A stretch of DNA of 64,000 nt. Source: Nitrosopumilus sp. (GTDB lineage: Archaea; Thermoproteota; Nitrososphaeria; Nitrososphaerales; Nitrosopumilaceae). Location of the stretch: contig OZ243974.1 in the NCBI GenBank assembly GCA_965214775.1, forward strand, positions 1,376,001 through 1,440,000, in the 5' to 3' direction. Below, in pieces: positions 10,594 to 29,883 of this stretch. Each line of letters begins with the position of its first letter. Position 1 is the stretch's first letter. The position numbers were made by a program, and so were the translations under genes. Below the pieces are notes generated by a model that saw only the letters and a list, made by a program, of their open reading frames with translations, ran no database searches and was not told the DNA's origin.

Positions 10594-10895
10594 AAACAAT
10601 AGACATTATGCGTAATCGACCTGAACGAGATGAATTTGTTTGCAACAATCCTGGCTTTGAACCGATTACGCAGTCTAGTGCCCGTAGATGTAACTGATCC
10701 TCAAATGCTTCAAGAACTTTTGCCAGTCAGCACGGTTCATTGCGCGGGTCGGTATGGCCTTATCGGAACCGCAGGCGGAGGCAGGTCATATCTGCAGTTT
10801 TGATTTTATCTTGGTTATGTCGTTTTCTATCCTCTCAAACCGAGAGTCAAGCATCTCGTGGATGTTGGATGAAAGACTTTGGATCTCCGTTATGG

Positions 10896-10971
10896 TCTGA
10901 TCCTGCTTGTCCAGCATCTGATCCTGCTTGTCCAGCATCTGATCCTGCTTGTCCAGCATCTGATCCTGCTT
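10896..10971. repeat. 21-bp tandem repeat x3.6 encoding LDKQDQM heptads
   Basis: tctgatcctgcttgtccagca x3 plus a partial copy. Confidence 0.95.
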
Positions 10972-11013
10972 CGAATCTATGGATTTCAGATACATGGAGC
11001 CGGTGCTGAATCC

Positions 11014-11126
11014 CTTGGTGGTCTCGTCGACAAGGATGCGCATCATTTTGAGGCGTTATGCCAGGCAAGGAAGAGCTTACACCTAAACTTGGTGGTCTCG
11101 TCGACAAGGATGCGCATCGTTTTGAG
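11014..11126. repeat. Direct repeat (31 bp exact, 39 bp with 1 mismatch) flanking a 35-bp unique insert
   Basis: cttggtggtctcgtcgacaaggatgcgcatc(a/g)ttttgag at 11014 and 11088. Confidence 0.92.
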
Positions 11127-11718
11127 AAGCATCAGGTTCTCTGGCGACATGTTCTTTGGAGCCTCCTCGTCCAGTCCGTTATGTTCTATGCGAAAAGTCG
11201 GGTACAGGCCTGTGCCCTCTGAATACTCGGATCGGATGTTTTTGATCAGGACTGGCCTTGGAAGGTTTCTTATCGATTCAAGCATTGCGTCGATGTCCTC
11301 CCGCCTTCTCTCGCATACGATCTCGACTGTGCCGTCCTCTAGGTTCTTGACGTATCCGTGAATCTCGCGCCGTATCGCCTCTGCCTGTACGAGGCAGCGG
11401 AGCCCGACTTCCTAGACTGTCCTTTCAAGCAGGAACGATGCCCTCTGCATACGGACAGTTGCCCTCGTGTGTATATTACAATTATGGCGTACTCATTCTT
11501 GATTATAGTGACGGGTTATTCCATGCCGGGTGGCGTGTGGACTTTGTGCGTAATCTACATAGATGAGATGAATTGTACAATTCATTCCTACGTAAAATCA
11601 GATGTGAACAGGAAGTTTGGATGAATGTTTTACGCCTGGAAAGTTGGGGGCCTGACGTGTATGACGAATTTGTTTGCAACAATCCTGGTTTTGAACTGAT
11701 TACAGTACCTGTCTGCTT

Positions 11719-11806
11719 ATAGTGACGATTAAAAGTCTTTGATCATCAAAAAGCGCCTTCCTGGGTAGTTTATGCCCACACGTGCTCAAACTTTTAATCG
11801 CTACTA
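11719..11806. mobile_element. MITE (~88 bp), TIR TAGTGACGATTAAAAGT; copies ~7929-8020 and ~1428-1520
   Basis: Imperfect TIR; shared core gtctttgatcatcaaaaagc in three places. Confidence 0.7.
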
Positions 11807-12329
11807 TGACCACCTATCTTTTCGTTCCTTCCTAACTGACTTTGTTTTCTCTTTGAAATCCATTCCTTTTTCAAAAAATTCCGATATCAAAATTTTCATA
11901 GCAGATCGTGCTGTTTGTAAAGTGACTTGCGATCTTGTACGCAAACTCTGTTTGAACGGCCATTGCTGATGGCAGGATTCATGCCTGAACTTCCAGATCC
12001 CAAGACGCTGCGAATTTTTCCCTGATTTTGAGATCCTTTGTTATGGACTTGGCTGATGTTCCTGGCAGCCGGCATTTCCCACAAACTTTTCCCTGACTTT
12101 GATGATGTCTTTTTGCTCAAGTGCATCGGCAATCAGCTCTGCCTAGGGTTGGCCCGACACAAAATTTTACTCCAGAAAGAGAGAACTCTCTTATGCTTTG
12201 GTTCATGCTGCCCTTTGATCCCCTCAACCCCTTCAAGTTCGTTATCGGAGAGTCCTGCTCTTGGAGCATCATTCCCGTCTGTCACCATGCCGTCGAGTTT
12301 TATTGATTAATGGCCTGCCGGGACTATTC

Positions 12330-12977
12330 CTAAAACACATAATCTGAAGATGCGCCGTCAATGTTTATCGTAACTCCGGAAAGATACTTTATCTGATTCT
12401 CTACGATGGATTTGACAAAATTTCCTATCTCCTCTGGCTCTCCCAATCTTTTCATTGGCAATGTCTTCTTGAATTCCTCTACGTCGTCTATCAACTCCCT
12501 TGTCCTGTCCGTGTTGATTGGGCCCGGTGCTATGTTGATGCAACTGACTTGATTCTGGGCATACTCCTTGCTTAGCACCTTGAAAACCTCTGAAAACGCC
12601 GCTCTGTACGCTGATGAGATTATCAGCTTTGGATTTGGCTCCTTGATGACGCTTGAGCTTATCAGGAAGACATATCCCCCGTCATTGATCTTGATGTTCT
12701 GCAATATTGTGCAAAATCCCAAGAACAACTGATTGTGATATTTCATCCAGTCTTTCTCGGAAATTTCTGAAAATTGTTTTGGAACCGGGCCTCCGGTATT
12801 TAACACAAGAATGTCCGTCTGACAGTGCTCTCTTACAAAGTTTCTGACACTCTCCAAGTCCGAAGTATCGATCTCGTTTTTTGATGTTGCAACCACATCC
12901 ACCTGAATTGAGCCGAGTGCTTTGGATATGGCCTTTCCAATTCCCCTTGAACCCCCCAAAACAATGGCCTTTGGCAT
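12330..12977 (-). CDS. Short-chain dehydrogenase/reductase
   Basis: GGSRGIG, PGPINT, RLGEPEE, IDG motifs. Confidence 0.88.
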   Translation of the reverse strand: MPKAIVLGGSRGIGKAISKALGSIQVDVVATSKNEIDTSDLESVRNFVREHCQTDILVLNTGGPVPKQFSEISEKDWMKYHNQLFLGFCTILQNIKINDGGYVFLISSSVIKEPNPKLIISSAYRAAFSEVFKVLSKEYAQNQVSCINIAPGPINTDRTRELIDDVEEFKKTLPMKRLGEPEEIGNFVKSIVENQIKYLSGVTINIDGASSDYVF

Positions 12978-13001
12978 ACAACATCAATAATTTCTGGATG
13001 A

Positions 13002-13274
13002 TTAAATTTCTTTAATCTCGGTAATCGTTCCCTGGACGGAATCCATCTTTACAATTGCCCTTTTTTCTTCCTCTTCCTCTCTATCTTCCTTCTCCTCCTC
13101 CTCCCATCCCAATGCCACATACCAGTCTCCTGCATCATCGTCGTATTTCGTCTCCAAAACCTTTGCTTCTTGGGGCCTGATGCTGTATTTTTTGGCTATT
13201 GCTGATACGGCTAGTGCTATTGCGTCCTCTTCCTTCTCTAGCCTTCTCTTCATCAACCCAATTCCGGGACTCAT
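13002..13274 (-). CDS. Small hypothetical protein
   Basis: MSPGIGLMKRRL... 90 aa, directly upstream of and co-oriented with the SDR gene. Confidence 0.7.
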   Translation of the reverse strand: MSPGIGLMKRRLEKEEDAIALAVSAIAKKYSIRPQEAKVLETKYDDDAGDWYVALGWEEEEKEDREEEEEKRAIVKMDSVQGTITEIKEI

Positions 13275-13328
13275 GGTTTTCTCCTGCCCATCATGCAACA
13301 TATTAACTAATAAGATTGGCCTTGGGGC

Positions 13329-13436
13329 AAGTGGAATCATCATCATCGATCCATTTTTCCAGAATAGGGCGTTGACGGCGATGGTCTTCCCACTGCCGTG
13401 TAAGTGGAATCATCATCATCGATCCATTTTTCCAGA
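13329..13436. repeat. Exact 35-bp direct repeat flanking a 38-bp unique insert
   Basis: aagtggaatcatcatcatcgatccatttttccaga at 13329-13363 and 13402-13436. Confidence 0.95.
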
Positions 13437-13490
13437 CTGGCATCACCTTTGGCAACATTTCAAATATCCCTTTTCCAGAGTGCAATCAAA

Positions 13491-14084
13491 GTGAAACTGA
13501 CCAGAATAATTCCAAAATCGTCTTTTAGAGCACCTAGCACGCTTCTGCCATTTGTATCCGTATTGGCAGTTGCCGGCCCAGTCATTGTAGTTTTTGCAGG
13601 CTTTTGGGATGCCGTTTCCCATCTTCAAAAAGAACCCGAGTTCTTTTGGAGCGCCCCCCACATGGCCGTCTATGCGGGAGTTACAATGTCTTTGTCTGGC
13701 GCGGTCTTGGGAGGCATCCTGCTTTACAAAAAATCCGTCCACAAATCCCTGAAAACCGGAATTCAGCTTGTGGTTGCCGGCTCTGTCATGCAGGCCATCT
13801 CCGGATTTGGCGACTCTCTGTCTCATGACCTTTTTGGAATTGACGGGCTGATCTCCTGGTCCCATCAACCCCTTGAACTGGGACTTGTCTTGGCGTCTCT
13901 TGGCGCCGTCTTTATAATCAAAAACAGGGAACACACAAGACTCCGGCTTTTTCTTCCATTCTCAATTGTGACATTCCTGTTTTTTGCAACCTGGCTGGCA
14001 TTCAATCTGGTTTTGATCGTCGGCCATACCGTCCAATGCATTCCTGTCTATGAAATATTCTCATCTGGCTGCGCCATACTGTAG
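13491..14084 (+). CDS. Multi-pass membrane protein
   Basis: Five to six hydrophobic segments; WDxxxH, FWSxPH and DxxxH motifs; GTG start at 13491. Confidence 0.75.
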   Translation: MKLTRIIPKSSFRAPSTLLPFVSVLAVAGPVIVVFAGFWDAVSHLQKEPEFFWSAPHMAVYAGVTMSLSGAVLGGILLYKKSVHKSLKTGIQLVVAGSVMQAISGFGDSLSHDLFGIDGLISWSHQPLELGLVLASLGAVFIIKNREHTRLRLFLPFSIVTFLFFATWLAFNLVLIVGHTVQCIPVYEIFSSGCAIL

Positions 14085-16513: not shown

Positions 16514-17185
16514 TCAGATGATCTTTATTCCTGGATTCTTGATCCTGTTTTGAATCATCGCATTTAGAAGCAATGGCGTGGCCATCTCTGCAAGATATGA
16601 AAGCTCAATTGGACCAAGATAGATTGAACGGAGCCCCTTGATCTCGTCAATTAGCGTATTGACTGAGCTTACTGCCTCCTTGTCGTCCCCACACACAAAA
16701 ATATCATAGTCTAACTCGAGCGTTGGATCTGCAAGCTTTTTCTCCGAAATTACATGAAATGCCGAGACCAACCTTGATTTGTCCCTCATGTGGTTTGAGA
16801 CAAGCTTGTATGAAAACGGCTTGTTGTCCTTGATTGGCACACACTCAAAACCAACACCTGTTTTTGTCATTGGAACGATTGGCGATACAACTACACACCT
16901 CTCCTTTGTCTCTGAAAGAACTCCAGAACACACTGCGTCAATGTTCTCATACGGGATTGACAAAATCAAGACGTCGCTCTGTCTTGCAACTGAGACATTG
17001 TCGTCTCCAGAAATCGTACCCTTGATCTGCCCAAACGCTTCTTTTGCGATATTTGCATATTGGGCCGCAGATTCAGCTGCCCTTGCAGCATCCCTGGAGC
17101 CAACCATCACCTCGTGATTCTGCGACCATCTCAGGGCAAAGCCCTTGCCCATGCCGCCTGTTCCGCCAATAATCCCAATCTTCAT
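16514..17185 (-). CDS. npdG: NADPH-dependent F420 reductase
   Basis: IIGGTGxxGxGxA, VGSR, SAFH, VCGDD. Confidence 0.88.
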   Translation of the reverse strand: MKIGIIGGTGGMGKGFALRWSQNHEVMVGSRDAARAAESAAQYANIAKEAFGQIKGTISGDDNVSVARQSDVLILSIPYENIDAVCSGVLSETKERCVVVSPIVPMTKTGVGFECVPIKDNKPFSYKLVSNHMRDKSRLVSAFHVISEKKLADPTLELDYDIFVCGDDKEAVSSVNTLIDEIKGLRSIYLGPIELSYLAEMATPLLLNAMIQNRIKNPGIKII

Positions 17186-28238: not shown

Positions 28239-28531
28239 GCCGAAACTATATAAAAAATAGTCAAGAAGGGGGGGGGGGTTCTAATTAGCTACTTGAATGC
28301 TGCCTAATTAGCTACTTGGCTGATTCTGCGTCCGTAGGAGTGTTCTAATTAGCTACTTGAATGCTGTCTAATTGATTAGATACTTCAATTATGATTAAAT
28401 TTCCACTCTCATTTGACTGAAACATGGGCGAATACGTGCGTAAAATACCCGTTAACCCCTCCCCCTTCAACTACCTGCAAAAACAAATCGTGGATATCAG
28501 CGATATGAACTAACAAAGTATCCAGATTACA

Positions 28532-29609: not shown

Positions 29610-29883
29610 TTGGAACGTCTCACGAAGGACAACCTGCCAAATGTGGGTGGGGTCTAATTAGCTACTTGGCTGACTGCTAGAATGATTCCAATAAAGAATG
29701 AAATCTTTAGGATGTGATGGGGGTCTAATTAGCTACTTGGCTGACTGCCAGCCTGAAAAAAATTAGGCAAAAACGGAAACTAGGCAAGAAACACGATGCC
29801 TCGAACATATCCAATCGCAAAACATCTATACTAAAAACAAAAATGATCCTTCTGATTCACATTTTGCTTGGCTGTTTTTTCAA

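Follow-up and report, generated by a model that had tools for sequence, protein, structure and literature searches.

Does the adaptation machinery of the CRISPR system of an archaeon insert spacers into ordinary chromosomal DNA, away from any array? This question is raised by a stretch of 64,000 nucleotides (nt) of a Nitrosopumilus sp. genome (hereafter, the window; positions 1376001–1440000 of a genome, G000, that consists of a single contig of 2,833,656 base pairs (bp)), in which two host sequences are each duplicated around a short insert of about the size of a spacer (scars 1 and 2; Table 1). We find that units of the same geometry are scattered over the genome and, judging from the comparisons described below, these very probably are fixed off-target spacer integrations by the genome's own type I-B Cas1-Cas2(-Cas4).

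The initial annotation of the window had described the two duplications, with unique inserts and with periods of 74 and 73 nt, and a direct-repeat search, along with the sequence itself, agrees with it exactly. In a window of 64,000 nt, chance cannot account for an exact repeat of 35 nt. The duplicated sequences of scars 1 and 2 are unrelated to each other, as had been stated and, in line with the proposed lack of terminal inverted repeats, no inverted repeat is reported inside either of the two focal inserts. The window was also read as devoid of cas genes, and the sole match to the Cas1 family (PF01867) in the genome is indeed located about 1 Mb away. Assembly or sequencing artifacts, a concern flagged in the initial annotation, hardly come into consideration: Logan contigs derived from runs of four independent studies reproduce both scars with 0 differences and at the depth of the neighboring contigs (for scar 1, X1 and X5 cover 11015–11118 and X8 covers 11073–11223; for scar 2, X5 covers 13334–13431, X6 covers 13335–13585, and X8 covers 13260–13410). 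No contig skipping the 73 or 74 nt was seen among these, which are contigs and not raw reads, such that rare empty-site alleles could escape notice. Furthermore, copies of unrelated loci, an end motif that resembles the repeat and recurrence in a second species would not be expected of an artifact.

The initial annotation had called for a genome-wide analysis of period enrichment, and a peak is readily apparent. We searched the genome for direct repeats using 11-nt seeds with ungapped extension, kept those of at least 26 nt with at least 15 nt between the copies, and discarded whatever belonged to either CRISPR array, to short-period tandem repeats or to multi-copy elements. Of the isolated pairs that pass this filter, 56 have one of the eight periods from 69 to 76 and 18 have one of the remaining 58 periods in the range 45–110, which amounts to about 7 versus about 0.3 pairs per period. 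Four of the 56 were dropped by hand, namely, 794568 and 1590841 (repeat inside a multi-copy element), 2133530 (collagen-like, 5 mismatches) and 1690978 (4 mismatches), and the 52 curated loci are the base of all the statistics on these units given below. The periods of these loci are 73 (16 loci), 72 (12), 74 (12), 71 (5), 70 (3), 76 (2), 75 (1) and 69 (1), so that 40 of the 52 fall within 72–74. By exact match, the duplication is 36–37 nt long in 24 loci and 34–39 nt in 37 loci, insert lengths peak at 36–38 nt, and the two copies are identical in 44 of the 52 pairs. Each locus has its own duplicated sequence and its own insert, which is unrelated to the duplication, and in 43 loci, the 18-mer at the center of the insert occurs only once in the genome.

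The cas1, cas2 and cas4 genes, for which the initial annotation had suggested a search, are all present in the genome, next to the array of 68 repeats. A six-frame search identifies a single Cas1 (PF01867, 232 bits, positions 2426073–2426972), in an operon that consists entirely of open frames and encompasses, according to NCBIfam, cas4 (85.6 bits), cas2 (44.1 bits), cas1 (218.6 bits), cas3 (HD plus helicase), cas5b and cas7/Csh2, along with two more open reading frames (ORFs) without a family match; in its layout, this operon is type I-B, and it looks intact. The spacers of the large array are mostly 34–36 nt long (mode 35), with periods of 72 (24 times), 71 (15 times) and 73 (12 times), whereas the second array, with longer spacers (Table 1), has no cas family in the nine neighboring ORFs. 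When the array and scar lengths are compared, as had been proposed, repeats of 36 and 37 nt and native spacers of 33–39 nt overall are matched by scar duplications peaking at 36–37 nt and inserts peaking at 36–38 nt, so that the scars have the geometry of the genome's own CRISPR units. A canonical CRISPR array was nevertheless ruled out for the 52 loci because there is no repeat sequence common to the units: the duplicated sequence equals neither of the native repeats and is present in two copies at each locus, with three at one site.

The inserts themselves provide a second line of evidence. We considered an insert self-derived if it matched another part of the genome with at least 90% identity over at least 85% of its length. 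Tracing of the insert sources, another analysis suggested at the outset, shows that 17 of the 52 inserts copy the genome's own DNA (12 match one unique locus each, and 5 match multi-copy elements), with the match in most cases stopping exactly at the insert boundary. By contrast, among the 78 native spacers there is none with a genomic match longer than 17-nt chance hits (Fisher p = 2.7e-8 versus the scars), a difference that would be expected if a self spacer is lethal as part of a functioning array and does no harm in an unprocessed unit. One of the protospacers is located in the window and is identical to the insert of scar 345230, so the window DNA itself has been sampled as a spacer.

Empty sites point in the same direction. 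For each scar, we built an empty site in silico, consisting of flank, one target copy and flank, and searched it against the same genome. Paralogous empty sites were detected for 17 of the 52 scars, those with targets in multi-copy DNA, with the match extending across both junctions; the best match is gap-free and 95–99% identical for most of the 17, and for scar 2249808, 157 of 157 positions align, with 99.4% identity. The search for empty sites proposed in the initial annotation was thus successful with respect to paralogous sites, including five paralogs at scar 1.

Can the units instead be decayed tandem duplications, internal gene repeats, or remnants of miniature inverted-repeat transposable elements (MITEs) or insertion sequences (IS)? 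A few such pairs do exist in the genome (a 75-nt repeat in a multi-copy element, an 82-nt family, and locus 2288313), and the pairs at other periods form a background, but we regard this origin of the units as very improbable. A tandem duplication would leave two full units, not about 1.5, and there are 52 distinct targets and inserts, without terminal inverted repeats in the focal ones; for 17 inserts, the source is an unrelated locus, and the similarity stops at the boundary, and the empty-site paralogs show one target copy and no insert, so that this explanation is already contradicted for most of the loci by the self-copied inserts and the empty sites. Insertion of an IS, a MITE or a casposon was ruled out given the lack of inverted repeats in the focal inserts, the mostly single-copy inserts, the duplication of about 36 nt and the absence of a second Cas1-family gene. 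Because only one Cas1-family gene was found in the genome, no casposase is present.

To characterize the choice of target sites, we read both ends of each duplication inward (104 ends in total). G is found at position +1 in 45 of these (p = 8e-6 at a genome G frequency of 0.235) and at +4 in 44, and A is found at +7 in 45. For comparison, in the transcribed orientation the native 37-nt repeat starts with GTCGTAAT, and reading inward from its other end gives GTTTCAAT. Over the ten outermost positions at each end, the duplications resemble the repeat termini more than 20,000 random genomic sites scored likewise, with z = 6.0 (37-nt repeat) and z = 4.1 (36-nt repeat). The G at +1 and the repeat-like ends agree with the strong guanine preference and the repeat-border features described at off-target sites in vitro for the type II-A Cas1-Cas2 of Streptococcus thermophilus (PMC6895254) and for that of Pyrococcus furiosus (PMC6698737).

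A Cas1 match was detected in 13 of 40 sampled congeners, the closest Cas1, with 46% identity, being encoded in G022. When the same pipeline was applied to the whole 1,861,824-bp contig of G022, the GC content of which differs from that of G000 by 10 points, we identified arrays with 36- and 37–38-nt repeats and 15 isolated units with periods of 72–74 and duplications of 36–41 nt, compared to 0–1 pairs at every other period. Among these 15 units, 5 have inserts with a full-length or nearly full-length match in the same contig (four at 100%), and 7 have empty-site paralogs. In G002, which has no Cas1 match, the first 800 kb contain no array and one scar-like pair, compared to 6.4 expected at the G022 density and 14.7 at the G000 density (Poisson p = 0.012 and 6.6e-6, respectively). 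Thus, in a comparison of one genome of each kind, the units are present in the genome with Cas1 and near-absent from the 800-kb sample of the genome without a Cas1 match.

Several observations weigh against the origin of the units by off-target spacer integration. Comparison with G002 is that of one genome against one, over 800 kb only, and still yields one candidate. In G000, the background should contribute about 2.5 pairs to the eight periods, and locus 2288313, still included among the 52, probably is part of a repeated element rather than a scar. The exact core of the duplication is 26–32 nt long, with long inserts, in 9 of the 52 loci, and 40–46 nt long, with short inserts, in 6 loci; the period is tighter than the duplication or the insert alone, and a strict ruler would not give such a split. 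Several of the short cores extend with mismatches or a 1-nt indel in gapped alignments; in three long cores, 3–5 nt also match the protospacer flank, and duplications of 40–41 nt still remain. The focal scars have G at neither end of the duplication, and their exact empty-site alleles, unlike the paralogous empty sites, were found neither in relatives that are about 70% identical nor in the contigs. The shared protospacer-adjacent motif (PAM) envisaged in the initial annotation, which Cas4-assisted type I adaptation would lead one to expect, did not materialize either: with the loci oriented by repeat likeness, the protospacer flanks show no convincing PAM. In an orientation-free count, TTN is present on one flank in 8 of the 17 protospacers, a marginal excess (in 500 random draws, the 95th percentile for the best motif is 7 and the maximum is 9). 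No protospacer of a native spacer, from which the native PAM could be read, was found.

Some of these points, namely, the lack of a PAM, the spread of the exact-match duplications from 26 to 46 nt, the focal scars without a starting G and the single scar-like pair in the 800 kb of G002, would fit a different process altogether, such as a staggered break of about 36 nt repaired with filler DNA or a non-Cas short-fragment integrase, with the match to CRISPR being coincidental. We consider such a process improbable, given that the period peak equals the native repeat-plus-spacer length in two species with GC contents 10 points apart, that the target ends resemble the ends of the native repeat, and that there is no casposase. 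No repair pathway is known to give rise to 36-nt staggered duplications. With the exception of the PAM, the original proposal that the units are scars of off-array integration by a Cas1-Cas2-like enzyme is supported by the period peak, the cas genes, the agreement with the array geometry, the self-derived inserts, the empty sites and the independent contigs.

Under off-target integration by Cas1-Cas2, the following scenario, which relies on the established chemistry of this complex, can be envisaged. The complex would carry a prespacer of about 36 bp and, in normal adaptation, would attack both ends of the leader-proximal repeat, on opposite strands and 36–37 bp apart, with gap repair duplicating the repeat. 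To generate the scars, the attack would occur instead at ordinary chromosomal sites the ends of which are loosely repeat-like (G at +1, G-T-n-G-n-A-A), and repair would then leave a copy of about 36 bp of host DNA on either side of an insert the size of a spacer. As the DNA duplicated in this way is no CRISPR repeat, the units probably are not made into CRISPR RNA (crRNA), and without crRNA, self-derived inserts would be tolerated in the scars although they are absent from true arrays.

What do the focal scars do to the host? The initial annotation had invoked a natural insertion mutagen, and this fits scar 1, which disrupts a gene; scar 2, however, is intergenic. The 74 nt of scar 1 shift the frame of the minus-strand gene in which it resides (Table 1), and their in silico removal yields one frame of about 190 codons, whereas five paralogs in the genome cross the junction uninterrupted, with a single target copy and no insert. 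Apart from the scar, the gene contains one in-frame TAG near the N-terminus, so that it may have been dead or dying before the scar appeared. We take the N-terminal part of the gene product to be acylphosphatase-like; the C-terminal part contains KQDQMLD repeats, which are encoded by a perfect 21-nt tandem repeat (3.6 copies, 10896–10971) and vary in copy number among the paralogs. The gene has no ortholog in the corresponding region of the relatives, so the comparison is limited to gene starts and intergenic length. Scar 2 lies in its entirety between two divergent genes, the conserved starts of which flank it in a tblastn comparison with the orthologous loci of five relatives. Neither of the focal inserts has a match in its own genome at E ≤ 0.01 or in the phages collection, or an exact 26-mer in viral_contigs. 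On the minus strand, the insert of scar 2 reads HGSGKTIAVNAL, which resembles a Walker-A/ParA-type motif.

Across the genome, the distribution of the scars bears marks of selection, with a depletion from long ORFs. The stop-to-stop frame at the empty site reaches at least 200 codons in 20 of the 52 scars, versus 69% of 3000 random positions, and at least 300 codons in 12 scars, versus 53% of the random positions (binomial p ~1e-5). The period is divisible by three in 7 of these 12 scars, versus 7 of the 40 elsewhere (p = 0.0095), a test that overstates independence as three of the 12 are located in one gene. It seems that important genes are purged of hits by selection; the remaining scars are found in intergenic DNA, in short or broken ORFs, in mobile elements, or as in-frame insertions of 24 codons in large genes. 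In the in-frame cases, a peptide segment is present twice, with a short new peptide in between; the genes concerned are large, lie at 1.266–1.282 Mb and, as read from the translations, are putatively involved in envelope formation or glycosylation. Seven scars, several of them in-frame 72-nt insertions, are located within a 16-kb stretch of this region (1266242–1281865). More broadly, 12 of the 52 scars are found between 1.266 and 1.406 Mb and none between 2.379 and 2.680 Mb, the region that includes the cas operon.

Few of the pairs are decayed. There are 43 pairs with at least 33 identities in 36. A scan for degenerate pairs yields 23 in the other 58 periods and 24 in the periods 69–76, and once the known loci and one multi-copy family are set aside, only 9 new degenerate candidates are left among the latter. 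Because decayed scars are few, the events appear to be either recent or short-lived, and recombination between the two copies would remove a scar precisely. At one site (1266843–1267015), the same target is present three times with two different inserts, the second of which is identical to copies of a multi-copy element; the first target copy has a 1-nt indel at its 5′ end. Taking these observations together, we are inclined, if only slightly, to view the adaptation module as a frequent, ongoing and probably reversible insertional mutagen, with dozens of inherited units per genome, gene knock-outs, in-frame insertions of 24 codons in large, putative envelope genes, seeding of new arrays, and, provided that the units are not read as crRNA, an uncensored record of Cas1-Cas2 sampling in which about one third is self DNA.

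Several additional features are worth mentioning. With respect to the sources of the inserts, a number of single-copy sources lie within 7–200 kb of an array (2405741, 2445016, 2358344, 2516412 and 2615428 in G000; 1769046 and 1779888 in G022:C1). In E. coli, there is an acquisition hot spot next to the array; here, the closeness of protospacers to arrays is not significant in a threshold-free test (p = 0.10 in G000 and 0.09 in G022). The insert of scar 2776475 and its source at 2615428–2615464, which lies outside any array, share an 11-nt stretch that is identical to the 3′ end of the plus-strand 37-nt repeat. Cas1 frames of 557–577 amino acids, which exceed the length of a plain Cas1, are present in relatives (G022:C1 87391–88200, G009:C1 1993273–1994118 and G047:C1 1643722–1644564); the one in G022 adjoins an array of 36-nt repeats that resembles the orphan second array of G000, which itself lacks a long Cas1. 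A few isolated pairs are also found at periods of 64–67, with duplications of 31–33 nt (398325, 1404277, which is position 28277 of the window, and 2343002 in G000; 648736 and 1310110 in G022:C1); these may be integrations with shorter inserts, and the second array of G022 has many periods of 65–66 nt.

Three of the 52 loci are located in the window: 1387014 (scar 1), 1389329 (scar 2) and 1405649 (window position 29649). In the third of these, the similarity of the duplication reaches 45 nt at 87%, with an insert of about 36–42 nt, which matches genome positions 775779–775814 at 33 of 36 nt. The motif TCTAATTAGCTACTTG occurs three times at 28268–28376, and the duplicated target of the third scar (29641–29756) has this motif as its core. 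Between the two focal scars, there is a 19-nt pair (12013–12031 and 12084–12102; 89% identity, spacing 71) that could be an older, decayed scar of the same kind.

Table 1 Coordinates of the scars, arrays and genes discussed in the text; the curated loci are given as genome start(period/duplication)
Feature	Coordinates	Numbering	Strand	Details
Scar 1, target copy 1	11014–11052	window		39 nt; direct-repeat search
Scar 1, insert	11053–11087	window		35 nt, spacer-sized
Scar 1, target copy 2	11088–11126	window		39 nt, one A/G mismatch to copy 1 (97% identity), spacing 74
Scar 2, target copy 1	13329–13363	window		35 nt; direct-repeat search
Scar 2, insert	13364–13401	window		38 nt, spacer-sized
Scar 2, target copy 2	13402–13436	window		35 nt, 100% identical to copy 1, spacing 73
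Large array	2420114–2425007	genome		37-nt repeat, 68 copies; directly adjoins cas operon
Second array	1977219–1978062	genome		36-nt repeat, 12 copies; spacers 36–39 nt
Protospacer	17039–17076	window	-	genome 1393076–1393039; identical 38/38 to insert of scar 345230
Third window scar	29649–29677 and 29720–29748	window		exact 29-nt copies, period 71; genome 1405649
Gene broken by scar 1	10786–11450	window	-	paralogous family; 5′ end approximate; three-frame translations
Paralogs of the scar 1 gene	152880–152296, 2519124–2519750, 834145–834624, 380587–380150, 2366068–2366568	genome		
Scar 2 minus-strand neighbor	start ~13274	window	-	MSPGIGLMKRR
Scar 2 plus-strand neighbor	start ~13491	window	+	GTG, VKL...
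Loci 1–6	10462(74/37), 90701(70/44), 106658(73/38), 186589(74/35), 200048(69/28), 275957(73/34)	genome		
Loci 7–12	301682(73/37), 305641(73/43), 333824(71/26), 345230(74/36), 503759(73/36), 577149(72/40)	genome		
Loci 13–18	617292(72/35), 723029(74/38), 801292(75/29), 849741(74/46), 867453(71/39), 894783(72/36)	genome		
Loci 19–24	934396(76/37), 974020(72/32), 1018023(73/35), 1266242(74/36), 1266843(72/27), 1266906(73/36)	genome		
Loci 25–30	1267835(72/39), 1275414(72/31), 1281865(72/44), 1297137(74/36), 1310726(74/38), 1372070(72/36)	genome		
Loci 31–36	1387014(74/39), 1389329(73/35), 1405649(71/29), 1501172(74/38), 1624310(73/36), 1703413(72/37)	genome		
Loci 37–42	1776014(73/37), 1815445(71/37), 1900928(73/36), 1929695(72/36), 2249808(71/37), 2288313(73/30)	genome		
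Loci 43–48	2297249(72/37), 2367252(73/36), 2378877(70/28), 2680484(73/37), 2701975(76/44), 2725140(74/36)	genome		
Loci 49–52	2744112(73/36), 2762528(74/36), 2776475(73/35), 2805851(70/37)	genome		

The spacer-inserting enzymes of this genome seem to hit ordinary DNA often. For the weight of off-target integration in nature, the approximately 50 inherited events in a wild-type genome and the 15 in a congener are pertinent. Sequence alone makes it possible to count the mutational cost of the adaptation module, the sequence rules by which targets are chosen in vivo, the earliest stages of array birth and the proportion of self DNA that is sampled prior to selection (17 of 52, versus 0 of 78 in the arrays) and, if the module indeed acts as a frequent insertional mutagen, the scars would measure directly, in nature, what adaptation costs in autoimmunity and mutation. 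The same scan, in which isolated direct repeats are examined for a peak at the period of a native repeat plus spacer, is applicable to any genome.

The closest known counterparts of the scars are the "neo-CRISPR" units reportedly produced by non-canonical spacer integration in E. coli and described by Nivala, Shipman and Church in 2018 (Nat Microbiol 3:310). As in the archaeal genome, a chromosomal target that is not a repeat is duplicated, over the length of one repeat, on both sides of an insert as long as a spacer; in E. coli, the events reportedly depend on Cas1-Cas2, and repeated integration at one site can seed a new array, to which the one site with two spacers observed here can be compared. 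The E. coli off-target events are characterized as rare and obtained with over-produced Cas1-Cas2 and supplied oligonucleotides (PMC7054753), and the natural evidence for off-target integration, which comes from two other species, is called circumstantial (10.1101/148544). By comparison with E. coli, the events observed here are fixed in the genome of a wild-type archaeon that has a type I-B system, where they number about 50, with another 15 in a congener; one third are self-derived, and there are signs of selection on where the scars survive. The mechanism is thus known from the E. coli experiments, but the natural scale seen here is unreported: a full-text search, without subscription journals and supplements, found no report of such scattered units in this archaeal group or at this scale, and the CRISPR passages of papers on genomes and mobilomes of related archaea (PMC6563490, PMC4084955) make no mention of them.

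The scars also differ from known products of Cas1-family enzymes. Casposon integration (named in PMC6563490) likewise involves target-site duplication by a Cas1-family integrase. A casposon, however, spans several kb and carries terminal inverted repeats along with a polymerase gene, in contrast to the unique 35–38-nt inserts and duplications of about 36 nt described here, and the only Cas1 homolog found in this genome is that of the CRISPR system. The target-site duplication of casposons is 14–15 bp. "Ectopic" acquisition in S. thermophilus and S. mutans (PMC7999890, PMC8265633) reportedly likewise occurs away from the leader-proximal repeat but uses a genuine repeat inside an array, whereas the events analyzed here involve ordinary DNA outside arrays. 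With the in vitro systems of P. furiosus (PMC6698737) and S. thermophilus (PMC6895254), the scars share the repeat-border features and the guanine at off-target ends; those systems are plasmid assays, many products of which are half-sites, whereas the archaeal scars are full-site, repaired and inherited chromosomal events.

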